DNA of 64,000 nucleotides from Roseibacillus sp. (GCA_051251855.1 JBPOGI010000002.1:384001-448000); one strand, 5' to 3'. Positions 29,019 to 44,433 are shown, numbered from the stretch's first letter. Numbers and translations are program-made. Notes: generated by a model from the letters alone, not told the origin.

Positions 29019-30074
29019 ATGTCCCTGAAGCATCAACTGACGCAGTCTACCTTTGAGAATGTTCTCACCGAGAAAGAGGTTGGGGAGTTGAAAGGAGCGG
29101 TTCCGAGTGGAGTGTGGGCGCACTATGGACCAGAAGGGATAGAGCGTTTGGCTGTGGAAGATGCCCGCGAGCTGCCGAAGACGGAGGAAGGGGTGACTTG
29201 GGTTCATTGGACTGGATTGGGGGAGGGGGTGGCTTTGTCGCGTCTTTTCACTTGTTTTGGGATTCATCCCCTGACGGCGGAAGATGTTCTCAATATGGAG
29301 AGCCGCGCTAAATTGGAGGAAACGTCTGAGAGCCTTTTTGTGGTATTAAAAATCCCGGTGGCGATGGACGATGAGGGTGAGATAGAGATGGTGCACTTTT
29401 GTTTGTTTTTTGAGGGAACGACTGTGTTGAGTTTTTCTGAAATTCCGCTCAAATTTCTAGAGGACCTGAACCGGCGGCTGGACGACCCCAAGAGGAGAAT
29501 TCGGAATTTGGGGGCTGATTATCTTATGTGGGCGATTCTCGACTTGGTGACTGACCACAGCTTGCGTTTTGTTGATTACTTGAGTGATCGGGTTGAGGAG
29601 CTGGAGGATCTCTTGATCGATGACGAGGTAGAGGTCTCGCTGGAACAAATTCACGGATTGAAGAATGAGGTTTCGCAAACGTATCGCTTGTTGCGCCCCG
29701 GGCGAGAAATCACCTCGCAGCTCTGTATCTCGGATTCGGCGCTCCTCTCGTCCGACACTTCGCGCTACTTTCGTGATTTGCACGACCATGCGGCTCAGGC
29801 TTCGGAGCAAGTTGACCATCTCCGCGACAAGGCGACAGGCTTGAGGGAGCTCTACTATACCTTGATGAGCCATCGCATGAACGGGGTGATGAAGGTTCTG
29901 ACTTCGTTGTCGGCGATTTTTCTGCCGCTTACCTTTTTAGCGGGACTCTACGGAATGAACTTTGCCCACATGCCGGAGCTTGCCTGGAAGTGGTCCTATC
30001 CCGTTTTTCTTGCGTTTCTCTCGGCGCTAGCGATTGCGTTGGTGTGCTACTTTAAGAAGAAGCGGTGGCTTTAG
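29019..30074 (+). CDS. corA: Magnesium/cobalt transporter CorA
   Basis: IHPLTAEDV, YFRDLHDH, MNGVMKVLT, YGMNF, MPEL. Confidence 0.93.
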   Translation: MSLKHQLTQSTFENVLTEKEVGELKGAVPSGVWAHYGPEGIERLAVEDARELPKTEEGVTWVHWTGLGEGVALSRLFTCFGIHPLTAEDVLNMESRAKLEETSESLFVVLKIPVAMDDEGEIEMVHFCLFFEGTTVLSFSEIPLKFLEDLNRRLDDPKRRIRNLGADYLMWAILDLVTDHSLRFVDYLSDRVEELEDLLIDDEVEVSLEQIHGLKNEVSQTYRLLRPGREITSQLCISDSALLSSDTSRYFRDLHDHAAQASEQVDHLRDKATGLRELYYTLMSHRMNGVMKVLTSLSAIFLPLTFLAGLYGMNFAHMPELAWKWSYPVFLAFLSALAIALVCYFKKKRWL

Positions 30075-30432
30075 AGGCCGTTTTTGGGGGCGTCTTGCTC
30101 ATGTGCCGAACGGTGAGGTGGGGTTGAAGAACGGTGTAGGAGAAGGACTCTCCATTGTTTGCCCGTCCAACGACAAGGTTGCGGAGACGTGAGAGTCGAA
30201 GTGAAGGGTTGCAGCCAGTGGTATCAAAACGAATAGGATTTGCTCCCTAGGCTCAGGGTTTCCTTGTCCTTCTGCCTCAAAAGTTTGATTTTGGGCTGTA
30301 GAAGGGATTCAAATCAAAATTTTCCCTTGTGTGGTGGTTTTCTGCTGTTCACAGTTTTCAAACACTCGGGTCCAATCTAGTTTTCACTGCTCGAAAGGTG
30401 CACCCCATCATCAAAAATCCATAAAAAGACAC

Positions 30433-31131
30433 ATGAAGAATACAATCAAATTACCTTTACTCGTGCTGGCTGGCGCAGCTCTGGCAACCAGCTCAGCTAG
30501 TGCTGTGACACTCCTCGTCAATTTCGGCGGTGGCGGGGATGTTGATGCGGCGGTCGCTGGCGATTACGCAGTTGCCGATCCCGCTGTGGATCTCGCTGCT
30601 CCAGTCGTTTTTCAGGGATCGGGGGGAGGCACTGCTGTGGGACTTGGCATGACTGTCGATATTAGTACCAACACTGGTAACTTCACTCCTGCCGACACCA
30701 GCATCTGGGGAACAACTCCTATTCTCGATAGTTATCTTTCACGACGGGATAATCCTCTCAATGTCACCGTGACCGGAATCGAGGAGTTGGCTCCTGGAAC
30801 GACATTCGACGTAACGGTCTATGGAGTTGGCGACGCGACCGACCAATGGGGGCCTATCAGCGTCACCTATAATGGTGTGACGACAGCAGAATTCACCACG
30901 GTTGCTGATCCTGCTGCTGCCGGAAACTCGAACGGGGAATTGACTCATGAAACCTTCACCTTAACGAAAGTAGCTGGAGTTGATTCAGTCGTCCTGAACA
31001 ATTCGGGTGTAGGCGGGTCACGTTGGCAAGCAATCAATGGCTTCTCGATCACTGGCACACCGATTCCTGAGCCTTCTTCAGCTCTTCTCGTTGGCTTGGC
31101 AGGATTTGCCTTCCTGAGACGTCGCCGATAG
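30433..31131 (+). CDS. PEP-CTERM sorting domain protein
   Basis: Signal MKNTIKL..ASA; C-term IPEPSSALLVGLAGFAFLRRRR. Confidence 0.9.
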   Translation: MKNTIKLPLLVLAGAALATSSASAVTLLVNFGGGGDVDAAVAGDYAVADPAVDLAAPVVFQGSGGGTAVGLGMTVDISTNTGNFTPADTSIWGTTPILDSYLSRRDNPLNVTVTGIEELAPGTTFDVTVYGVGDATDQWGPISVTYNGVTTAEFTTVADPAAAGNSNGELTHETFTLTKVAGVDSVVLNNSGVGGSRWQAINGFSITGTPIPEPSSALLVGLAGFAFLRRRR

Positions 31132-31155
31132 TCCTCTGATAGATTTTATCTTTAG

Positions 31156-31191
31156 AACCCACTTCGGCAGATTTGTCGAAGTGGGTTTTTT
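31156..31191 (+). terminator. Rho-independent terminator
   Basis: AACCCACTTCGGCA-GATT-TGTCGAAGTGGGTT plus T-run. Confidence 0.85.
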
Positions 31192-31248
31192 ATTGGTTGT
31201 TTCCCGCAAGGTATCGGGGACAATGAGTTCCTGATTTTCACTTTCTAG

Positions 31249-33774
31249 ATGAACAAAATTTTCCGAACGAGGGGAGCTTTCATCGTGCTGCTATCCTTTG
31301 TAGTCTTGGGTGTTATCTTCGTGGCTGGGAGTAGGTTTCGGTCTCAAAAGCAGACTTTCGCTGCAAAGGCTCAGCAAATCACGAAGTCCGAGGAGCTGAT
31401 TCTCGCCCTGCAGCGGATGCTCAGTGATATTTCTAAGAGTGGGAAGAATCGGCAGCTTCCAGATTTCGACGACAGTCGTTTTTTTGAACCCTCTGTATTG
31501 GTGAGAGACCTCACGCCGAAATACGAGATTGCTTCCACTGACAATCTCGAGGTGGCCCTCAAGAACTGGCAAATTGATTCGGAGAATAGACCCGTTCCCG
31601 CAACGAACCTGAGGCTCTTCAGCGCTCTCTTCGATGGTCTCAGCGCGGTAAGAGGTTTCAAAATGAAGATTGTCTCCGGCGAATTCTCCGACACCGAGGA
31701 CTCCTTTACCACCTCTCTTGCCGTTTCAGGATCCGGAAAGCTCACCTCTGAGAACGAGCTCTCTTTCGAAGGGCATTTGGATGTTGAGTGGAGGAATAGC
31801 GGCTCCGATGGCTGGAGAATCAGTCGCTGGGAATTGTTGGATTTCGAGAGTCATGAGAACCTTACGAAGACACCCTTCTTCACCCGTGCCAATGAGGCCT
31901 GTCTGCCGAATGCGGCGGAGCGGAGTAACGCGGAACTTTCCATTCACGACGAACTCATTAAGTCGCTCTTGCTGAACGGAGGTTGCACTCCACCAGGGCC
32001 TAAGTTCGAATACGACTTCGGCTTCGAATCAGCGGCAGCTTGTCCTAGTGTTTCAGTGGTTGATCTCAATGGAGATGGTTGGGATGATTTTTATTTGATG
32101 GCTCGGTGGGGGCGCAATCAGCTCTTTATCAATCAGCAAGATGGCACCTTTAAGGAAAGCGCCGCTGAATTCGGACTCGATATTCTCAATCACTGCACGG
32201 GAGCAGCCTTTGTTGACTTTGATAATGACGGGGACAAGGACCTCATCCTCAGCCGGAGCTACGCGCGCAGCCAAATCCTTGAAAATGTAGGAAATAGGTT
32301 TCACGATGTCAGTCGTTCCTGCGGGGTCGAACTTCCTGCGATGGCGACCTCGGTTTCTGTCGCCGACTATAATAGGGATGGTCTGCTTGATGTCTTCTTC
32401 ACTACCTACGGGAGCGACCGGCTCCTTCGTGAGTTTCTTCCCATGTCGCAGCAGGAGGAGCTAGCGGCGATATCATCTCAGGGGAAGCATCATCCGGTCT
32501 TGAATGCCTTGGGGGCTCCCAATGTCCTATTGGTCAATCGTGGGGGAGGGAAGTTCAAGGTGGCACCCGAGTCACCTCAATTGGCAGGATGGAAGACAAG
32601 CCTTTGCAGTGTGTGGGCGGACTATGATCAGGACGGAGATGCGGACCTCTATGTCAGTAACGACTTCGGTCCAGATGCTCTGATGAGGAACGACTACCCG
32701 AACGGGTTCAAAGATGTGACTCTCGAGGAGGGGCACGAGTCCATGGCTGGATTTGGGATGGGAGTTTCTTGGGGAGACTACGACTTGGATGGGGCACAGG
32801 ATCTCTACATCTCTAACATGTATAGCAAGGCTGGTCTCCGCATTGGGAAGCAGATTGAAGGGATAGACCCGCGATTCGAGAAGTTTAACAACGGCAACCG
32901 TCTCTACCGTCGAAAGGAGAATCACTTTGAGCTCACTTCAGGCTTAAAGCCACCTGAGCATCTTGTGGCGAAAGTCGGTTGGTCTTGGGGAGGGCAATTT
33001 GCGGATTTTAACAATGATGGCTTTTTGGATATTTATGTGCCGTCCGGCTACTTCACCGCGCCCGATGCGGTGGCGGGCGGCGATGATTTGTGAAGTGTCT
33101 ATTGGCGCGGTGCAGTTTGCACCGACCCCGGTTTGGAGAAAGGATTTCGCAACAACAAAGGATGGAAGGACGTCGACTTTGATAGCTTCGTGGTTCAGAA
33201 GCAGGACGCTGATGGCAAATGGTTTGCGCAATCCTTTAGTGGTCATGAAACCAATAAGCTCTTCATGAATCAAGGAGGGGAATCTTTCTTCGATATGTCA
33301 GCTTTAGCCGGTTTGGATAGTGATGCCGATGGGAGATCTTTCGTCCTTTTGGACTACGACCGGGATGGTTGGCAGGATTTGATTCTAGTGAATTCGAACT
33401 CTCCTCAATTGGAAATTTTCCACAATGAAATGGGCCGAAGGTCATTCGGAGGGCGGAGTATCGTGTTTCATCTGATTGGAGGGAATGAAAGTTCGGAGGC
33501 GAGCGAAGAGTGGTCGAATCGAGATGCCCTGGGTGCTGTTGTGACCGTCAAAGTAGCTGGGAAAACAATCATGCGGGAGTTGCGTTGCGGAGAAGGACTC
33601 GGTGCGCAAAATTCTGGAATGTTACTGGTCGGTATCGGCGAGAACGAGATGATTGAATCTGGTGAGGTGAGATGGCCCTCGGGTAAACGTCAGACGCTCG
33701 ATGCTCTCGAAGCAGGAATGTTGGTCACGATAAAAGAAAGAGGCGGAATTGCCGTAAGGACCTATAACCGTTGA
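31249..33774 (+). CDS. FG-GAP/CRTAC1-ASPIC-UnbV protein with in-frame TGA at 33091-33093 (codon 615); 841 aa if read through
   Basis: ORFs 31249..33093 and 33133..33774 share a frame with only the TGA between them; DxNxDG blades on both sides; GDDL*SVYWRGAV; C-term ASPIC/UnbV motifs NRDALGA and VRWPSG. Confidence 0.8.
33108..33124 (+). other. Candidate SECIS-like recoding hairpin
   Basis: CGGTGCA-GTT-TGCACCG, 7-bp stem starting 14 nt after the TGA. Confidence 0.6.
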
Positions 33775-34013
33775 GGTTTAAAGGCCGCTTTTACAGAATG
33801 ATTAATGATTCTTAATCGCTTGCTTCCCGTCATAAGTATCCAAATTTCAATGGGCTGCATCTTTCTTTGCAGAAACCACCATGAACTTTGTCAAAACGGG
33901 TCAAATACTCCGCTTTTACGAGAAAATCGTTGTGCTCTGCTATCTGATTTCTATTATCGCGAAGCTGATTTTGTGGTGTTTGCTTAAACGCCCAATGGCA
34001 ACACCTAGAACTC

Positions 34014-34859
34014 ATGAAAAATAAAACAATACTCGCCTTATTAGCGGTTTCAGCAATTGGCGCGCAAGCAGCGGCGATTCATACTGGGCTTCTGAACTAT
34101 TGGACCTTAGATGGTAATGGAGAAGATTCAGCCAGCGACTTCACAGAAGGAACTAGCACCGTCGAAGATGATATGACAGCGGGTGGCGCTGTTGGAACAA
34201 CGACTATTCTTTCTACTGGAGGCTTGTTTGGGGGCGCCGTTGATTTTGAGGTGGGTTCTGGCGTTGATGGTCATCTCGCTGCGACAGCAAGCGCTGATAC
34301 TCAGTTCGCAGGAGAAAGTATTACTGTCTCTCTTTGGGCTCAGTTCGAAGACAATAGCACTGGCGACTGGCAGTCCCTGCTGGTGAACGGAGAAGGCAAC
34401 AACTACCGCATCTCGACTAACCGCAATAATCCTGGTCGCAACCAAGCAAGCGCAGCCTTCGGAACGGGTGACCTTAACTCAGGGGTGGATATCCGTGCTG
34501 CTGGACCCGTTTCTGGTTTTCACCACATCGTGGTCACTGCAGTCAATGGAGCTCCTGTAAACATCTACGTTAATGGTGTTCTCGAAGGCACTTCCGGCGG
34601 GAATTCTGCAATTACTAATGATGACCCAGGGGTACCCGACGAACTCTGGATTGGAAACAATGTCGATGATCCAGATCGTCAGTGGGACGGATTGATTGAT
34701 GATGTCGCCCAGTGGGATCGTGCTTTGACTGCTGCTGAAGTTACTGAAATCTATGACGCAGGAGTTCTCGGCATCAGTTTGGGTGCCATTCCTGAGCCGA
34801 CTTCAGGACTTCTTCTTGGTCTCGGTGGTTTGACTGTGCTTCTTCGCCGTCGCCGATAA
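34014..34859 (+). CDS. LamG-like domain PEP-CTERM protein
   Basis: NYWTLDG, HHIVVT, IYVNG, WDGLIDDVAQWDRALT; C-term IPEPTSGLLLGLGGLTVLLRRRR. Confidence 0.9.
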   Translation: MKNKTILALLAVSAIGAQAAAIHTGLLNYWTLDGNGEDSASDFTEGTSTVEDDMTAGGAVGTTTILSTGGLFGGAVDFEVGSGVDGHLAATASADTQFAGESITVSLWAQFEDNSTGDWQSLLVNGEGNNYRISTNRNNPGRNQASAAFGTGDLNSGVDIRAAGPVSGFHHIVVTAVNGAPVNIYVNGVLEGTSGGNSAITNDDPGVPDELWIGNNVDDPDRQWDGLIDDVAQWDRALTAAEVTEIYDAGVLGISLGAIPEPTSGLLLGLGGLTVLLRRRR

Positions 34860-34899
34860 ATTCTCATACCCTTCAAGGGTCGTACGTAATTTTTCTAGG

Positions 34900-34930
34900 A
34901 ACGACCGGTCGCAAGATCGGTCGTTTTTTT
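34900..34930 (+). terminator. Rho-independent terminator
   Basis: AACGACCGGTC-GCAA-GATCGGTCGTT plus T-run. Confidence 0.85.
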
Positions 34931-35013
34931 ATTCCCCTTGAGAGTCCAAATTGGGCACAGTATTGCCAGTTCTTTCGATGAAGCCGAGAGAGATTTCGCT
35001 CACCTATTCTTCG

Positions 35014-38000
35014 ATGCAATCATACACGTTATTTCAAAGCCTTGTTTTCGCTTCGGCTTCGTTTTTCTGGGTAGCTCCTCTTCAGGCTATTCCCAAAGTT
35101 TTGGAAGACGAACCCGAGATCATTGCTGCTCCAGGTTTAGAAAATAGGGAACTCGTCGGACCGCTGTCAGAGGTCATTGATCGCTTGTCTCCCAAAGATG
35201 ATGGCTGGGATACCGAGGCCTTTAGTGAGGCCGCTTCCGCTCAGTTGTATCGCTTGGGCGCTCTCTTGAAGTCTCCCGAGAGAGAGGACTCTGCTTACGC
35301 ATCCCTTGCCGATGAGGAATTCACTTCCGCTGTTCTTCGCCCTGATGAGAAGAATCTGGACCTTCTGGAAGGCGACGAATTTCAGGTTCGAAAATGGAAT
35401 GGCGTCATCGATTCCTCAAAGACCCTTTCTCTTTCGGAGGCTTGCAACCAGTTCCGCTCCGCCTTTGCAGCAGACGAAAAGTTGCAACTGGCAAGCAAGC
35501 TCTACAAGGTGATGCCGCAGGGCGAAGGAGTGACCCAGACTGATGTCCTGGTGGAGGCTGCGGGCAAAGCGCCTGCTGCCGGACGCCGCCAGATCAATGC
35601 CGAATGGAGATGTCATTGGAAGGATGAGGAAGGCCAGCCTCAGCTCACGAAAATCGAGCTTCTGAGTTATCAAGAAGTGACTCGTCCCTTGGGGGAAGGA
35701 AAGCCCCTCTTCTCCGATCGAACGAAGGAGGCTTTGGGCCGCAATGCGAGCTTGCAGGAGCAACTCCTTCATTCCTCGGATCATTGGCGGGCCCGATTTC
35801 CGCGGGACCTCGGGCTGGACGTGGTCGCGAACGTGGGCTTCGTGCTGGCAGACCTCAATGGTGATGATTTAGAGGATCTCTATTTTTGCCAGCAAGGCGG
35901 CCTTCCCAACCTGCTCTTTCTTCGGCAACCGAATGGCACCTTCCGAGATGCTTCCGAAGGGAGTGGGGTTGATTGGCTTGATTTTTCTCCCAGTGCGTTG
36001 GCCATTGATCTCGATAAAGATGGCGACCGCGATTTGGTGGTGGCCTTGCAGTTCGAGTTGCTCTTGATGCGCAACGATGGTCAGGCCAAGTTCGAGATCG
36101 TGACCCGCGTTCCGGTTCTGGCGCAGACTTTCTCAATCAGTGCCGCGGACTACGATCTCGATGGCGACCTGGATCTTTTCTCGTGTGGCTATAATCCAAC
36201 GATGGAAGACTTGGAAGAGAGCGGTGCCTTAGGTTCTCCTACCCCGTTCCATGATGCAAACAATGGGGGACCCAATACCCTGCTGAAAAATGTCGGGCCC
36301 TTTGAGTTTCGAGATGCGACTGTGGAGAGTGGCTTGAGCGAACAGAGCAACACTCGCTTTAGCTTTGCTTCTGGTTGGGAAGACTATGACCGGGATGGTG
36401 ACCCTGACCTCTATGTTGCCAACGACTACGGTCGCAATAATCTTTATCGCAATGATGAAGGGAAGTTTGTGGACGCTGCTGGTGAACTGGATGTGGAAGA
36501 TATGTCCTCGGGAATGTCGGTGAGCTGGGGTGATGTCAATCGGGATGGAAAGAGTGATCTTTATGTGAGCAACATGTTTTCTTCGGCGGGCAATCGGATC
36601 ACCTTTCAAAAGCAATTTCAAAATGGAGGGGCGGGGGAAGCTTTGGATACTTTCAAACGTTTCGCACGAGGTAACGCCCTCTTTCTAGGAACTCCAGAGG
36701 GAGATTTTGATGATGTGAGCGAGGAAGCCGGAGCGACGATGGCACGTTGGTCTTGGGGGTCTCGTCTCGCGGATTTGAACAATGATGGGTGGGAGGATAT
36801 TCTCGCGGCCAACGGTTTCATTAGCACGCCCGATACGGGAGACCTCTGAAGTGTCTATTGGCGACAGGTCGTGTCGCTCTCTCCGATTGATGACTTTAAT
36901 GAGCAAGCGTTGCAAAAGTATAAGCACCGCTGGAGTGCCTTGTCTCGCTTGCTTCATGAAGACCGTTCCTTCAGCGGGGGGGAGCGGCATAACGCATTTC
37001 TCAATTTGGGGGAGGGCCGTTTTGCCGATATCTCGGCGGTGACCGGTTTTAACTTTGCGGAAGATGGCCGGGCTTTGGTGACTCAAGATTGGGATTTTGA
37101 TGGCGACCTTGATGTCTGGGTCACGGCACGGACAGCGCCCCGAGTGCGTCTTCTCGAAAACCAATCGCAGAACAGTGGAGAGTCCGTCTTCATTCGTTTG
37201 CAGGGGAATGGAACGACTTCGAACTCAGATGCGGTCGGGGCTCGTTGCGAAGTTTGGTTGGTGGATGATGAGCGGCCTCTGACTCGTTCTCGGACCGCAG
37301 GAGATTCCTTTCTCTCGCAAGGAAGCTCTTGGCTTCACTTTGGACTGGGTGCCGAGCCTCAGATTGCGCGGGTCATTGTTCATTGGCCCGCTGGTCAGAG
37401 TGAAGAGTTCACCGGGATCGAGAGTGGGGGGCGGTACTTGCTCCATCAAGGACAGCCCCAAGCGAAACAGTGGAGTCCTCCTGCCCAAGTGAAGCTCGCC
37501 GAGGCCAGTCCGCTTGAATTGCCTCATGAGACCGAACAAGCCCGGATTGTGCTCCCCAACTCTTTGTTGTTGCCCCTCCTGGAAACAAACGAAGGCGAGG
37601 CGATTTCTGACCCGAGCAAAAAGGGTCCAATAGTGATTAATTTATGGTCTCAGACTTGTTCTTCTTGTCTCGAGGAACTGAAGGAGTGGACCGAGTTCGC
37701 TCCTCAATTGAAAGCGGCCGGCCTTCGGGTCTTGGCCCTCAATACTGATGCCATTGCTCAGACTGGCGATCTTCCAGAGGGACAAGAATTTTTGCGCGAG
37801 ATCGAGTTTCCCTATTCTTCCAACTCCACCAACGAGGACACTCTTCAGCGATTAGACATTTTTCAGCAGAGCTTACTGGACCGATGGCTTCCACTCCCTA
37901 TTCCTTGTAGCTTTCTTGTGAATGCTTCTGGCAAGGTGGCGGTGGTTTACAAGGGTCCCGTTGCTGCAGAGACCTTGCTCGCGGATTTAGCTCTGCTCGA

Positions 38001-38811
38001 AGCTGATTCTGTCACCTTAAGGAACAAGGCCACTCCCTTCTCCGGTAGGTGGGCTGCTGGCCCTCCTCTGATTGGTCCGAAAAGATACGTCGCACGACTT
38101 CTTGATTTCAAAAAAGTTGTCGATGCTGAGCGCTACTATCGGCGCTATCTCGAGTTGGAACGTAAGTTTCCTGACTCGCCGTCGGGTCCGAGGGCCTCTG
38201 CTTTGAAGTTTCTCGCCTTTGTGGCCTCGGGGCGAGAGGACTATGCCTCAGCAATTAGCTACCTCGAGGAGGCTGTTTCTCTCTTTCCTCAGGAACCGGA
38301 ATTTCAGCAACTCCTGAAAACGGCTCAAGACAAGAGGCGACTCTCGTCTCCTAAAGAGACTTTAAAGCCCCTGTTGGCCCAAGTGGAAGCAGAGCCCAAG
38401 AACGGTCAGGCTCATTTGGCTCTTGCTGATGGCTATCGCGACATGGGAGAACCCGCCAAAGCAATCGAAAGTTACAAGAATGCATTGAGACGCGAACCAG
38501 GATTGTTCGTGGCGGCAGGAAAGCTCGCTTGGATTCTAGCAACTCATCCGAGTCCTGAGATTCGGGAGCCAAAAGCAGCCTTGGAGCTGGCCAATCGGCT
38601 CATGTCCCTGAACGCAGCGCCGAATCCCAACTTCTTGGACCTTCAGGGAATCGCGCTCGCTGCTAATGGAGACTTCGCTGCGGCCGTTAAAAAGGCTCAA
38701 GCGGCCTTGGTGCTTTTGCCGGAAGGCTCTCCTTATCAGAAGGAAGTGAGTTCCCGCCTTGGTCTCTATAAAGAAGGAAAAGCCTATTATGAGGGTAAGG
38801 CTTCCAAGTAA
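35014..38811 (+). CDS. FG-GAP/CRTAC1-ASPIC-UnbV-redoxin(CxxC)-TPR protein with in-frame TGA at 36847-36849 (codon 612); 1265 aa if read through
   Basis: ORFs ending 36849 and 36871..38811 are in frame; TGDL*SVYWRQVVS; WSQTCSSCLEEL; TPR-like C-term; start chosen by paralogy with 39063. Confidence 0.8.
36861..36877 (+). other. Candidate SECIS-like recoding hairpin
   Basis: GCGACA-GGTCG-TGTCGC, 11 nt after the TGA. Confidence 0.6.
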
Positions 38812-38945
38812 TTGCGAGTTGATTCGAGTTCCCGCTAGTCGCTGAAATCGCGCTCTGCTTTGCGGGCGTCGAGGTCAGTGAATTCTTTTTAGGTGGCTTC
38901 AATTTCAGCTTCTTCAGAAGGGAGGTAATCAACAATTTTCTATAG

Positions 38946-38975
38946 AACGATTGGTTGAAAGATCGGTCGTTTTTT
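38946..38975 (+). terminator. Duplicated terminator (copy of 34900-34930)
   Basis: AACGATTGGTT-GAAA-GATCGGTCGTT plus T-run; C>T changes retain G-U pairing. Confidence 0.65.
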
Positions 38976-39062
38976 ATTTCCTTTTAGAGTCCTCACTGGA
39001 CACATTGATGACAACCCTCTTGATGAGGTCGTTCGTAGATTTCGAGTCTCACTTATTGTTCG

Positions 39063-42000
39063 ATGCAGTCATATAATTCATTTTCAAGCCTTGTTCTGGT
39101 TTCGACTTTTTTTCTCTGGGCGGCTCTTGTTCAAAGTGCTCCCCAAGCTTCGCAAGACGAACCTGAAATCATTGCTGCTCCTGGGTTGGATGAGAGAGAG
39201 TTGGTGGGGCCGTTGTCCGAGGTGCTCGATCATATGTCTCCCAAGGATGATGGCTGGGATACCGAAGCCTTCAGTGAGGCCGCATCTGCACAATTGTATC
39301 GCCTAGGCAACCTCTTGAAGTCTCCCGATATGGATGCCGCGACTCTCGCGGACCTCACGGATGGTAGTTTTGTGTCCGCAACTCTCCGACCCAAGGAAGC
39401 CTCTCTCGATCTCTCGGAAGAAAGCGAGTTTGAGGTTCGCAAATGGAATGGCGAACTCGATTCAACAAAGGCTCTTACTCTTTCTGATGCCTCTCTTAAA
39501 TTCCGCGCTGCCTTTGCTCCCGAAGAGGTTTTGCAAATCAAAACCAAGCTTTACAAGGTGATGCCGCAGGATGGGGGAGTCACGCTCACCGATGTCTTGG
39601 TGGAGGCCTCTGCCAAAGCTAGCACCTCTGGACGCCGCCAGATCAATGCCGAATGGAGGTGCCATTGGAAGAGCGAGGACGACCAGCCGTTGCTCACTCG
39701 AATCGAGCTTTTGAAGTATGAGGAGGTGACCCGTCCCCAAGGGAAAGGCCAGCCTCTCTTTGTTGACCGGACCAGAACCGCGCTCGGCAATAACGCGAGC
39801 TTGGATAAGCAACTCCTGCATTCCACGGACCATTGGCGGGCACGGATTCCGCAAAGTCTGGGTTTGGATGTGGTGGCGAACGTGGGTCTATTGCTCGCGG
39901 ACCTGAACGGTGATGATTTGGAAGACCTTTACGTTTGCCAACAAGGAGGCTTGCCCAACCTGCTCTTCCTGCGTCAACCGGATGGCACCTTTGTCGATGC
40001 TTCCAAAGAGAGTGGGGTTGATGTCCTTGATTTTACAGCGAGCTCCTTGGCCATCGATCTCGATAAGGATGGCGACCGCGATTTGGTGGTGGCTTTGCAG
40101 TTCGAACTCATGTTGATGCGGAATAATGGCCAAGCGAAGTTCGAGCTGATGGCTCGGGTTCCATTAGCCGCTCAGACTTTTTCGATCAGTGCCTCTGACT
40201 ACGACCTGGACGGCGATCTCGACATTTTCACCTGCGGTTATAATCCGTCATTGCAAGAGGCTGAAGAAAATGGAGCGTTAGGTTCTCCTTCTCCCTTTCA
40301 TGATGCCAACAATGGCGGACGCAATACTTTCTTGAAGAATGTGGGAGCCTTTGAGTTCCAGGACGTGACTGTGGAAAGCGGCATCAGTGAGCAGAACAAC
40401 ACTCGCTTCAGTTTTGCTTCTGCTTGGGAAGACTATGATCGTGACGGCGATCCCGACCTTTATGTCGCCAACGATTACGGGCGTAATAACCTTTACCGTA
40501 ACGATGGCGGAAAGCTGGTAGATGTCGCCGCTGAATTGAAGGTAGAGGATATGTCTTCGGGGATGTCGGTGAGTTGGGGCGACCTGAATCGTGATGGTCG
40601 AAGCGATCTCTATGTGAGCAATATGTTTTCTTCGGCAGGGAATCGCATCACCTTTCAAAAGCAGTTTCAAAATGGAGGGGCAGGGGAGGCCTTGGATACT
40701 TTTCAACGATTCGCGCGAGGCAATGCTCTCTTCCTTGCCACTCCCGATGGAGGCTTCGATGATGCCAGTGAGGATGCGGGAGCGACCATGGCTCGATGGG
40801 CTTGGGGCTCTCGTCTGGCGGATTTGAATAACGATGGTTGGGAGGATGTCCTGGCTGCCAACGGCTTCATTAGCACCCCCGATACGGGAGACCTCTGAAG
40901 TGTCTATTGGCGACAGGTCGTGTCGCACTCTCCCATTGATGACTTTAGTGAGCAGTCGGTGCAGAAGTATAAGAATCGTTGGAGCGCCTTATCGCGTTTG
41001 CTCCGCTCTGATCGCTCCTTCAGTGGCGGAGAGAGGCATTGTGCTTTCCTCAATCTGGGGGGAGAGCGTTTTGCCGACATCTCGGCGGTGACGGGTTTTG
41101 ATTTTGCAGAAGATGGTCGCGCCTTGGTGACCGAGGATTGGGACTTCGATGGCGACCTCGATGTCTGGGTCACCGCACGAACGGCTCCACGAGTGCGCCT
41201 CCTTGAAAATACTTCTCAGAATGCGGGAGAGTCTCTTTTCCTCCGCTTGCATGGGAACGGAACCACAACGAATCCAGACGCGGTGGGGGCTCGCTGCGAA
41301 GTCTGGTTAGAGGGAGATGACAGACCTCTCACCCGTTCTCGCACTGCGGGAGACTCCTTCATTTCTCAAGGGAGTTCTTGGTTGCACTTTGGGCTCGGGG
41401 TGGAGCCGAAGATTGCGCGAGTGATTGTTCATTGGCCTGCTGGTCAGAGTGAAGAGTTCACAGGGATTGAGAGCGGAGGACGCTACCTTCTTCATCAAGG
41501 GCAGCCGCAAGCGAAAGGTTGGAGTCCTCCAGCGCAGGTGAAGTTCGCAGAAGTCAGCCCTCTTGAGTTGCCTCATGAGCCCGAACAAGCCCGTATTGTT
41601 TTACCGAACTCGCTTCTATTGCCTCTCCTGCAGACTCATGAGGGTGCTGCTATTTCTGACTTCAATAAAGAGGGGCCAACGCTCATCAATTTGTGGTCTC
41701 AGACTTGTTCTTCATGTCTTGAGGAGTTGAAGGAGTGGACCGAGTTCAAACCTAAATTCGAGGCTGCGGGTTTGAGGGTGATAGCTCTCAATACCGATGC
41801 TATCGGTCAAACTGACGAGAGCTCTGAGGGGCAGGATTTTCTGAGCGAGATCGAGTTTCCTTATTCAGCTCAGTCCGCCAACGTGGAGACCCTGCAGCGA
41901 TTGGATCTCTTTCAACAAAGCTTTCTCGACCGATGGCTTCCGTTGCCAGTTCCATGCAGTTTCCTGCTGGATCGTTTCGGTAAGGCGGCGGTGATTTATA

Positions 42001-42860
42001 AAGGCCCTGTCGCAGCAGAGACTTTGCTCGCGGATTTGGCCCTGCTTGAAGCCGATTCTGAGACGTTGAGGAGTAACGCCACCCCCTTCGCCGGTATCTG
42101 GGCTGACGGTCCACCTCTAGTGGGACCGAAAAGCTATGTCACCCGGCTTTTGGACTACAAGAAGCTGGCCGATGCCGAGCGTTATTACCGGCGCTACGTG
42201 GAGATGGAGCGCAGCCTTCCGGACACCCCTTCGGGACCCATGATTGAAGCCTTAAAGTTTCTCGCTCTTCTTGCTTCTCGAACAGAGAACTTTGCTCCCG
42301 CAGTAGCGCATCTTGAAGAAGCAATTTCTATCGTTCCAGAGGACCCTGAGCTGCAACAGCTTCTTAAGGAGGCTCAGGAGAAGCTTAAAGGTGCCACTCC
42401 GACGGATCTGTTATCGCCCTTGCTGGCCAAAGTGGAAGCCGAGCCAAAAAATGGGAAAGCTCATCTCGAACTTGCGGATGCTTATCGTAATCTTGGAGAA
42501 GCAGCGAAAGCGGTCGAAAGTTATAAGAACACGCTGAGGAACGATCCGAAATTGTTTGTGGCCGCTGGGAAGCTGGCTTGGATTCTCGCAACTCACCCCA
42601 GCCCAGAGATTCGTGAGCCAGAGGCGGCTTTGCAGTTGGCGAATCGACTCGTGGCGATGAACGGAGCAATGAATCCAAATTTCTTGGACCTTCAGGGAAT
42701 CGCGCTGGCAGCTAATGGTAAATATGAAGCGGCCGCAGAAAAAGCTGAAGCGGCCTTGCCGCTCGTGCCAGAAGGCTCTCCTTACCAGAAGGAAATTCGT
42801 TCCCGCCTGAGTCTCTATCAAGAGGGGAAGGCCTACTTTGAGGGAAAGGATTCTAAGTGA
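39063..42860 (+). CDS. Tandem paralog: FG-GAP/CRTAC1-ASPIC-UnbV-redoxin(CxxC)-TPR protein with in-frame TGA at 40896-40898 (codon 612); 1265 aa if read through
   Basis: ORFs 39063..40898 and 40920..42860 are in frame; TGDL*SVYWRQVVS; WSQTCSSCLEEL. Confidence 0.8.
40910..40926 (+). other. Candidate SECIS-like recoding hairpin
   Basis: GCGACA-GGTCG-TGTCGC, 11 nt after the TGA. Confidence 0.6.
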
Positions 42861-42948
42861 TCCTTGATTGGCCCAAGTGACTTTCCATTGCGGTTTCCAA
42901 ATTCCGATTTGTTGTGTCGCCTTGTTCCTGTGAGAAAATGCGGCGGCT

Positions 42949-43638
42949 TTATAGGCGGTTTCTTCGGAAGAAAAAGATGCCCAAAGTCATTGAGGCGAAG
43001 AGGGGAAGGCTGGGCTCGGGCACGGCAGAGAAGGTGCCAAGCATCCTGACGGAGAAATCACCCGCCGGGCCGTTGTTAAAACTAAATTGCAAGCTATCGA
43101 CTTGCGAGAAGTCGGTGGCGCTCGCATTGGTGAAGGAGGAGAAGGGAAAGTCAATGAGGGTGTCGTTGGTGAGGGCGCTCGCTTGAAGGATTTGGAGGCT
43201 AGCGACCTGACTGTTGATGTCGGTTACTGAGACGCTGATTTCGAGATTTGCATCAGAGTCGGCAACGAGGAAGGCGAGCGAGGTAGCGCCACCTGCCGAG
43301 AGGTCGAAGCCACCGAGTCCGGCGCTATTGGCATCATAGGTGAGGGAGAGGTCGGCGGTGAGACCGGGGCCGAGTTCGGCAAAGTATTGGCCTGTGACAG
43401 AACTGACACCCACATTGGCAGTACGCGCAAAAGGGTTAGAGGTGACTGTTACCTCGATATTGCGCCAAGCTCCTGGAATGGAGTTTGAGGGATCTTGGAA
43501 GCTCTGTTGATGGGAGCCGGAGGAAACGGAGAGAGGGCTAGGGCCTGAGTCAAAGTTGTCGAGCGCCTGAACCAAAGTCAGTGCGGCTGGGCAATTGAAG
43601 GAGACGGCAAAAGTGCAAAGGAGAGTAGGGCGAATCAT
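42949..43638 (-). CDS. PEP-CTERM sorting domain protein
   Basis: C-term VPEPSLPLFASMTLGIFFFRRNRL; N-terminal signal-like segment. Confidence 0.8.
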   Translation of the reverse strand: MIRPTLLCTFAVSFNCPAALTLVQALDNFDSGPSPLSVSSGSHQQSFQDPSNSIPGAWRNIEVTVTSNPFARTANVGVSSVTGQYFAELGPGLTADLSLTYDANSAGLGGFDLSAGGATSLAFLVADSDANLEISVSVTDINSQVASLQILQASALTNDTLIDFPFSSFTNASATDFSQVDSLQFSFNNGPAGDFSVRMLGTFSAVPEPSLPLFASMTLGIFFFRRNRL

Positions 43639-43686: not shown

Positions 43687-44433
43687 CTACAAGCCTTCTC
43701 GACGCCGTCTGAGACATACTCCGAAGCTAGATATTGCAATGAGTATCAAAGAAGAAGGCTCTGGAATCGATTGAGTGTTAACTGCTCTGACAGAGACTTC
43801 AGATATCACGATGTCGGGGGCTCCTTGGCCGGTAATATTGTGCACTTCTACCTGCAGGGAGGTGAGATTTTGCATGTCGATACTCTCAAAGACATCATAA
43901 GGAATGTCGACTTGCTGGCGAGAATAGTTGGCTTCTTGTCGGAAGACGTGGGTCTCAGGGAGTCCACCGAGGGATTCCATGGAGATTTGGATTTCGAAGG
44001 GGGCTTGTGAGAACTCGACTAAGAGTCCAAGGCAATTGGCGGCGTTCGACATGGTCATATCGAAGGTCATGCCGCTGGGGGCTTGATAGTCCAACCAAGT
44101 CCGAGCGCTCACCCCAGGGCCGTAGGAAAGCACGAAGATGCCATGTTCGGCGGCGATTTCGGCAGTGACGGATCGTTCTTCAGGGATGAGGTTCGCGTCG
44201 ATGCCTAAGTTGCGCGTCCATCCTTGAAGGAGGCTTTCATTCTGAAGAGGCATGGAACTTTGCTGGGCTTCGACGGTGCGTAGCGAGAGATTCTGAGAAC
44301 CTTGGGAAAAATTGTCGAGTTGACCAATGGTGACCGCGAAAGCTTGGCTAGAAAGGGAGAAGACAAGGCTCGGAAGTAGGCTTCTTGTGCGGAGGAGGTT
44401 GTTGAAAGAGGGGAAGGTAGGCATGAACATCAA
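43687..44433 (-). CDS. PEP-CTERM sorting domain protein
   Basis: C-term IPEPSSLILIAISSFGVCLRRRR; shares LDNF, W.RN, GPG and SLQ landmarks with its neighbour; start uncertain. Confidence 0.8.
   Translation of the reverse strand: MMFMPTFPSFNNLLRTRSLLPSLVFSLSSQAFAVTIGQLDNFSQGSQNLSLRTVEAQQSSMPLQNESLLQGWTRNLGIDANLIPEERSVTAEIAAEHGIFVLSYGPGVSARTWLDYQAPSGMTFDMTMSNAANCLGLLVEFSQAPFEIQISMESLGGLPETHVFRQEANYSRQQVDIPYDVFESIDMQNLTSLQVEVHNITGQGAPDIVISEVSVRAVNTQSIPEPSSLILIAISSFGVCLRRRREGL

Follow-up and report, generated by a model that had tools for sequence, protein, structure and literature searches.

In-frame UGA codons as likely selenocysteine sites in three tandem CRTAC1/ASPIC-UnbV genes of Roseibacillus

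Three CRTAC1-like genes with an ASPIC/UnbV domain lie on one strand of a 64,000-nucleotide (nt) stretch of Roseibacillus sp. DNA (GCA_051251855.1, JBPOGI010000002.1:384001-448000), referred to here, at its full length, as the window. Each gene is broken by a TGA in its own reading frame, and this codon, its surroundings and its probable decoding as selenocysteine (Sec) are the subject of this work. Copy 1 occupies positions 31249..33774 (+), with the TGA at codon 615 (33091..33093); copy 2 occupies positions 35014..38811 (+), with the TGA at codon 612 (36847..36849); and copy 3 occupies positions 39063..42860 (+), also with the TGA at codon 612 (40896..40898). When translated in frame, each gene shows a single internal stop, flanked as DL*SVYWR (the asterisk denotes the stop), and a tblastn search within the genome places the three TGAs in a single alignment column. 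These results bear out a preliminary description of this DNA, made from the sequence alone, which had reported three pairs of open reading frames (ORFs), each pair in one frame and split by a single TGA in that shared context, and had predicted joined products of 841, 1265 and 1265 amino acids; our translations give the same lengths. The final stops are TGA in copies 1 and 3 and TAA in copy 2, for which a TTG at 34951 offers an alternative start. Copies 2 and 3 (group A) are 86-87% identical across the regions compared; copy 1 belongs to group B.

Pfam FG-GAP repeats precede each TGA, and FG-GAP-type DxDxDG loops resume after it, followed by the UnbV_ASPIC domain; the blades DYDRDGWQD and DWDFDGDLD, which the preliminary description had placed beyond the stop, are found there in the translations. 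Scores exceed the cut-offs in every copy, both for UnbV_ASPIC (PF07593; 53.2, 49.6 and 47.3 bits in copies 1 to 3, cut-off 23.4) and for FG-GAP_3 (138.5, 117.2 and 112.1 bits, cut-off 26.9). Copy 1 consists of an N-terminal hydrophobic anchor or signal, the FG-GAP propeller and UnbV_ASPIC, and by Pfam has neither a thioredoxin-like domain nor a TPR tail. Copy 2, whose architecture copy 3 shares, has a signal-like N-terminus, the FG-GAP propeller, UnbV_ASPIC, a TlpA/ResA-like thioredoxin-fold domain (AhpC-TSA, 33.5 bits in copy 2 and 28.2 in copy 3, cut-off 26) and a TPR tail. The thioredoxin-like domain contains a CxxC motif, C-S-S-C, at residues 882-885 of copy 2 (37657..37668, +) and at 41706..41717 (+) in copy 3; the TGA lies about 270 residues upstream of this motif, within the propeller. 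Against the NCBIfam models for ResA, StoA and TlpA it falls well short of the cut-offs (23.1 versus 170, 22.5 versus 210 and 18.9 versus 230), and the domain is a member of the superfamily, not of ResA, StoA or TlpA as named proteins. No family-level NCBIfam model covering the three proteins was matched.

A structure model of copy 2 (residues 255-1000, with 100 homologues) has a mean predicted local distance difference test score of 93.6 and a predicted template modelling (TM) score of 0.93, and the ten-residue block containing the site averages 91 on the former scale. The TGA corresponds to model residue 358, where a helix (358-368) begins just after a strand (353-356). Model residues 1-560 superpose on murine CRTAC1 (9etn_A) with a VIA Z of 42.4 and a root-mean-square deviation of 2.3 Å over 432 aligned residues, the next entry having a Z of 28.9, and Foldseek matches the model to the same structure with an E of 4.8e-26. 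The C-terminal domain matches ResA (TM score 0.75, target-normalised), TlpA (0.64) and StoA. As modelled, then, the TGA falls inside a single continuous CRTAC1-type domain, and this continuity across the site counts against two separate gene products. The likeness to murine CRTAC1 is one of fold, with Pfam UnbV_ASPIC and FG-GAP common to both; structure-based identity is only 16-20%, the sole sequence match is one short stretch (E 3.4e-07), and the bacterial proteins bear an extra thioredoxin-like domain and TPR repeats. A full-text search on the CRTAC1 crystal structure did not find the paper on 9etn. Copies 2 and 3 resemble the TlpA/ResA-like oxidoreductases in having a thioredoxin fold with a CxxC, but the putative Sec lies outside that motif.

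The genome from which the window comes (13 contigs, 4.96 Mb, 95% complete) holds the Sec machinery. All four of selA, selB, selC and selD exceed curated cut-offs: the tRNA-Sec gene (selC) scores 63.9 bits (cut-off 47) and is called by ARAGORN as tRNA-SeC with anticodon UCA, and the selA, selB and selD matches reach 455.6, 331.1 and 375.9 bits. The selD match (G000:C7:93121-94050, outside the window) covers its model end to end and contains an in-frame TGA of its own; SelD of this genome is probably a selenoprotein too. TGA also serves as an ordinary stop, as the preliminary description had argued from the codons ending at 2134, 8297, 33774 and 42860, all of which are TGA. Across six frames of the whole genome it terminates 364 of 1595 open frames that run 400 codons or more from stop to stop, and this usage rules out a genetic-code reassignment of TGA as an explanation for the interrupted genes.

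The interruption recurs in relatives. Matches to the 300-residue region around the site were present in 10 of 41 related genomes, and 36 of the 61 matches contained exactly one TGA; these 36 are spread over nine genomes, three of which hold 11, 10 and 6, and the corresponding open frames run to 800-1400 amino acids with exactly one TGA. When 30 loci were fetched from these relatives, 28 aligned across the site, with TGA in 23, TGC in three and poor alignment in two; the three TGC loci are distant paralogues of the type DY-C-STFWR. A public scan limited to one genome per species gave 601 confirmed relatives, and in the best 80 of them the codon is TGA in 75, the others being GCA (twice), GCC, TAC and TCG. 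Agreement at one codon on this scale, within the genome and among its relatives, greatly exceeds what chance would produce. By record title, these 80 loci come from Verrucomicrobiales, Akkermansiaceae, Roseibacillus, several planctomycete groups, Phycisphaerae, Acidobacteriota and one Flavobacteriaceae bin, and the family is widespread among bacteria, with TGA forms in Verrucomicrobiota, Planctomycetota and Acidobacteriota. Neither TAA nor TAG, either of which the preliminary description had held to speak against readthrough, occurs at the aligned codon in any of 108 loci aligned across the site. The Flavobacteriaceae record (L133, titled as a metagenome-assembled genome) is the only one of the 80 from outside both the Acidobacteriota and the Planctomycetota-Verrucomicrobiota-Chlamydiota group; it is a TGA form with a 7-bp variant of the hairpin described below, groups with the verrucomicrobial locus L106 on our tree, and could reflect a binning error or horizontal transfer.

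Other members of the family have a sense codon at this position. Two CRTAC1-like paralogues of about 810 amino acids in the same genome (G000:C1:591438-592688, -, and G000:C7:337114-338409, +) have no TGA and carry Cys at the site (DY-C-S-x-F-W), and in two related genomes (G001 and G002) a contig that bears a TGA-form paralogue also has, 2-3.5 kb upstream of it, a non-TGA match of that type. A fourth TGA, at G000:C1:1659738 in a 1210-amino-acid CRTAC1-like gene (G000:C1:1656558-1660886), was considered and rejected as a Sec site; it is a true stop with low-complexity sequence after it. A database search for unsplit homologues returned 2009 proteins, and in the best 120 of these the site is occupied by D (30), E (25), S (18), M (10), C (6), N (5), A (4), Y (2) and one each of R, W and G, the remainder being 16 gaps, most of them in a remote group whose members are about 1700 residues long, and one protein that does not cover the position. 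Two close homologues among those with Cys retain the CxxC as well. The preliminary description had envisaged sorting homologues at this codon into TGA, Cys and Ser or other residues. TGA does predominate in the closest loci; a simple Sec/Cys pair is not what we found, as the unsplit homologues have mostly Asp, Glu or Ser.

The association of TGA homologues with Sec genes, which the preliminary description had anticipated, holds in both samples of genomes, where TGA forms are confined to genomes with selA. Among the 41 related genomes, selA is present in nine of nine that have a TGA form, and a TGA form in none of the 20 that lack selA; among 121 acidobacterial genomes the figures are seven of seven and none of 21 (these tallies take in G120, G142 and G151, which are flagged as unpublished). 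Non-TGA forms do occur in genomes without selA, in one of the related set and four of the acidobacterial sample. The acidobacterial test is weak because 100 of the 121 genomes carry selA, and related genomes are not independent of one another. One selA match in the acidobacterial sample (G047:C56:5613-6755) itself contains an in-frame TGA.

Shortly after each TGA, and within the ORF, lies a hairpin of the selenocysteine insertion sequence (SECIS) type. In copy 1 it spans 33106..33126 (+) and has a 7-bp stem and a GUU loop; in copy 2 it spans 36861..36877 (+) and has a 6-bp GCGACA/UGUCGC stem and the loop GGUCG; and the hairpin of copy 3 (40910..40926, +) is identical in sequence to that of copy 2. 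Relatives of copy 1 in group B have a hairpin at the equivalent place. The energy of the hairpin alone is -10.9 kcal/mol in copy 1 and -7.9 kcal/mol in copy 2, and that of a 31-nt core is -13.5, -10.0 and -9.3 kcal/mol in copies 1 to 3. The bacterial SECIS (bSECIS) model, as set out in section 5 of PMC13188914, has a loop of 3-9 nt in which a G stands within the first two positions, an upper stem of at least 4 bp, a distance of 16-37 nt to the UGA and a minimum free energy of at most -7.5 kcal/mol. All three hairpins lie within these bounds: loop and stem are 5 nt and 6 bp in copies 2 and 3 and 3 nt and 7 bp in copy 1, G comes first in each loop, the UGA-to-loop distance is 17 nt in copies 2 and 3 and 21 nt in copy 1, and the core energies run from -9.3 to -13.5 kcal/mol.

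Single-sequence energy does not set this element apart, as folding the 60 nt after each TGA against shuffled sequences gave z-scores of -0.91, -0.90 and +0.39; it is the comparative evidence that singles it out. Across 91 distinct TGA forms, 96.7% of the cells in the stem alignment are paired, half of the six pairs vary in both partners, and the 13 compensatory cells were matched by none of 500 shuffles. At one stem pair, 82 sequences have A-U, the other nine have G-C and none is unpaired, and sliding the 3′ partner by a single column lowers pairing to 14-18%. The hairpin overlaps the codons of the conserved peptide W-R-Q-V-V-S. To control for coding constraint, we used non-TGA relatives that share the W-R motif, taken from one acidobacterial class; locus L171, which comes from an unpublished genome, was excluded from the counts. 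All six pairs form in 89 of the 102 unique TGA forms and at least five in 97, compared with six in none of the 25 non-TGA forms and five in two of them. Similarly, the Val codon behind the GGUC loop is GTC in 83 of the 102 TGA forms versus three of the 25 non-TGA forms. These comparisons indicate that the hairpin is a property of TGA forms, built upon a coding sequence that already provides two to five of its six pairs.

Sequence comparison establishes the conserved UGA, the hairpin with its covariation, the Sec machinery, the link to selA and the fold that continues across the site; from these we infer that selenium is actually inserted. The three TGAs are thus very probably Sec codons, each gene encoding one exported CRTAC1-like protein, and the machinery, the homologous TGA, the selA link and the SECIS-type hairpin all favour Sec, which the preliminary description had named as its best candidate. 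In the mechanism we propose, the in-ORF hairpin downstream of the UGA would recruit SelB with Sec-tRNA(Sec), in the manner of canonical bacterial recoding, to yield a full-length product with an FG-GAP beta-propeller and ASPIC/UnbV domain, to which copies 2 and 3 add a TlpA/ResA-like domain and TPR repeats. Formate dehydrogenase of E. coli is the type case of recoding by SelB, tRNA-Sec and a SECIS within the ORF. The present genes share with this canonical system the in-frame UGA, an in-ORF hairpin with a small loop that begins with G, a spacing of 17-21 nt and a genome with selA, selB, selC and selD. The mechanism would be no different; what distinguishes the element here is that it overlaps the protein-conserved W-R-Q-V-V-S and has no Rfam match.

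Several observations weigh against this interpretation. The best 80 loci were picked by their likeness to a TGA-form query, and the 75 of 80 therefore overstates the family-wide frequency of Sec; in addition, the genomes compared are related to one another. Cys is only a minority counterpart at the site (six of the 120 unsplit homologues), an unusual pattern for a catalytic Sec. Because non-TGA forms also conserve the peptide S-F-F-W-R-Q-V-V, part of the nucleotide conservation is coding constraint. Finally, a search of positions 31000-43000 against Rfam at E up to 10 produced nothing credible, SECIS included; its five matches were all below threshold and attributable to chance.

If Sec is inserted, the company it keeps suggests a role. 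A C-x-x-C motif lies 200-340 residues past the site in 91 of the 92 TGA forms whose ORF is long enough (89 of 90 under another de-duplication of the TGA forms), compared with two of 25 DNA-derived non-TGA forms. The modelled position of the residue at the start of a helix points the same way; a helix N-terminus is a typical position for a redox-active Cys or Sec. We regard it as an even question whether the Sec at the propeller helix N-terminus takes part in redox chemistry, with the fused CxxC domain servicing it. Were it so, lineages in which Sec was replaced by Asp, Glu, Ser or Ala would lose the redox chemistry and then the CxxC.

This redox role has its own difficulties. Both cysteines are retained in nine of 100 unsplit non-TGA database homologues, and a thioredoxin-like domain is wholly missing from copy 1 and its group, in which three relatives have a Cys two residues past the Sec (U-S-C). 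Phylogeny provides few independent comparisons: on a FastTree tree of 130 distinct sequences (101 Sec, 29 non-Sec; midpoint-rooted, without bootstrap and with a long-branch warning), the Sec state changes three times, and the main non-Sec clade comprises 24 acidobacterial sequences nested among Sec forms. With so few changes, only two independent contrasts can be drawn, one of which came out as expected and the other with no difference, and no significance can therefore be claimed. The association between Sec and CxxC is suggestive, not demonstrated.

Alternatively, Sec might be inserted and yet stand outside any thiol/selenol relay with the CxxC, where it would bind a metal or substrate or form a tunable residue on the propeller surface. 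Nearly all of the residues seen in unsplit homologues (D, E, S, N, M, C and Y) are possible metal ligands, the propeller has DxDxDG loops of the calcium type, and copy 1 and its group would carry Sec with no thioredoxin-like domain for it to work with. Furthermore, a 2026 review reports predicted binding for about 20% of known selenoprotein families, with metal accounting for about 70% of those interactions. Such a role is nevertheless hard to square with a CxxC that is almost invariable in long TGA forms and scarce in both non-TGA sets, and with the placement of the residue at a helix N-terminus in the copy 2 model, and we consider it unlikely, though a serious contender.

The remaining explanations dispense with Sec. 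The UGA could be read through by a near-cognate or suppressor tRNA delivering Trp, Cys, Arg or Gly, or could act as a leaky stop that sets a ratio of short to long product. UGA is the leakiest bacterial stop codon, and the range of residues found in the 120 unsplit homologues indicates that the site tolerates many substitutions. Readthrough of this kind would leave a covarying hairpin that is specific to TGA forms and fits the SECIS model, as well as the restriction of TGA forms to selA genomes, without a role; Trp occupies the column in one of the 120 homologues, and the 364 long open frames ending in TGA show the codon to be an effective stop in this genome. We judge this explanation very unlikely.

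A true stop, leaving either a conserved pair of N-half and C-half genes or a truncated N-terminal protein only, is what gene callers assume when they split these loci, here and in the pairs described in footnote 1 of Table S9 of Kim et al. 2016 (PMC4807772). GTG or TTG codons 7-13 codons past the TGA provide the called starts. These starts, however, place the beginning of each C-half within the propeller, inside a domain modelled as one continuous fold, and they leave out the 7-13 codons after the TGA, which remain in frame and whose peptide is conserved more strongly than any other hereabouts. Many unsplit homologues have a sense codon at this position, and a true stop offers no explanation for the link to selA. 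As the only product, a stopped protein is highly improbable. Bacterial Sec insertion is inefficient, so a truncated product is probably made alongside the full-length one. Pseudogene lesions or assembly errors have nothing in their favour beyond the presence of a stop codon and are refuted by the comparative data, in which over 100 distinct genes, drawn from independent assemblies and at least three phyla, have TGA at this codon with the frame open and conserved on both sides, leaving them a negligible chance.

The Sec interpretation has a precedent in print. Pairs of ASPIC/UnbV FG-GAP genes are listed as selenoprotein candidates in Table S9 of Kim et al. 2016 (PLoS One, PMC4807772), where bSECISearch predicts a SECIS in three of four pairs and Gly is the aligned residue in the closest match. 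The listing is a supplementary table without analysis, and the terms 'ASPIC' and 'FG-GAP' do not appear in the main text of that paper. Those pairs share the domain family with the genes studied here, and their annotation, too, divides each locus at an in-frame UGA into two neighbouring genes. The present genes differ in belonging to another phylum, going by the verrucomicrobial titles of the nearest loci, and in standing as three in tandem, one of them a short form that lacks the thioredoxin-like tail.

Elsewhere the family was not found. A search by word and Pfam accession through the main text of a 2026 review of the prokaryotic selenoproteome, including its Table 1 of 119 families, did not return it, and neither did deep-Sep (main text and four supplementary files) nor BSepDB (main text and one supplementary file). 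Full-text searches pairing selenoprotein or selenocysteine with ASPIC, FG-GAP, CRTAC1 or UnbV gave nothing relevant, subscription papers being outside their scope. The preliminary description had not recognized a classical selenoprotein family here. The family is absent from the catalogues checked but had already been flagged in print as a candidate. SECIS-independent searches rely on Cys-containing homologues, so they would tend to miss a Sec site at which Asp, Glu or Ser is the usual residue in homologues.

Gene callers cut such genes in two, and the true products consequently never enter protein databases. Split gene calls of this kind make selenoprotein counts per genome too low, and marine Verrucomicrobiota, Planctomycetota and some Acidobacteriota would be undercounted in this way; one related genome has 11 such genes. 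A conserved Sec with a co-retained CxxC would also be the first testable lead on the role of bacterial CRTAC1/ASPIC-UnbV proteins, pointing to redox chemistry outside the cytoplasm. Taken to its full extent, the redox proposal describes a large extracytoplasmic selenoenzyme family missed by the catalogues, with Sec at the N-terminus of a CRTAC1-type propeller helix recycled by a fused TlpA-like CxxC domain; we put this forward tentatively, at somewhat less than even chances. Some relatives within the Verrucomicrobiota have 10-11 Sec-encoding paralogues per genome, and this family may therefore dominate their selenoproteomes. The acidobacterial replacement of Sec by Ser, Ala, Glu or Asn, followed by decay of the CxxC, would provide a natural on/off series for the chemistry. 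In addition, the conserved coding sequence for W-R-Q-V-V supplies part of the hairpin in advance, which may explain how Sec has been held, or has arisen, at an otherwise variable codon that lies a suitable distance upstream.

Small proteins bearing PEP-CTERM sorting signals are encoded around and between the three CRTAC1-like genes, at 30331-31131 (+), 34014-34859 (+) and 43687-44433 (-), and a gene for a CorA magnesium/cobalt transporter lies at 29019-30074. A sub-threshold match to the small RNA sroB (34862-34930, +; 34.5 bits where the gathering score is 44; E 0.16) sits right after a PEP-CTERM gene and ahead of copy 2, and may represent a terminator-like hairpin.

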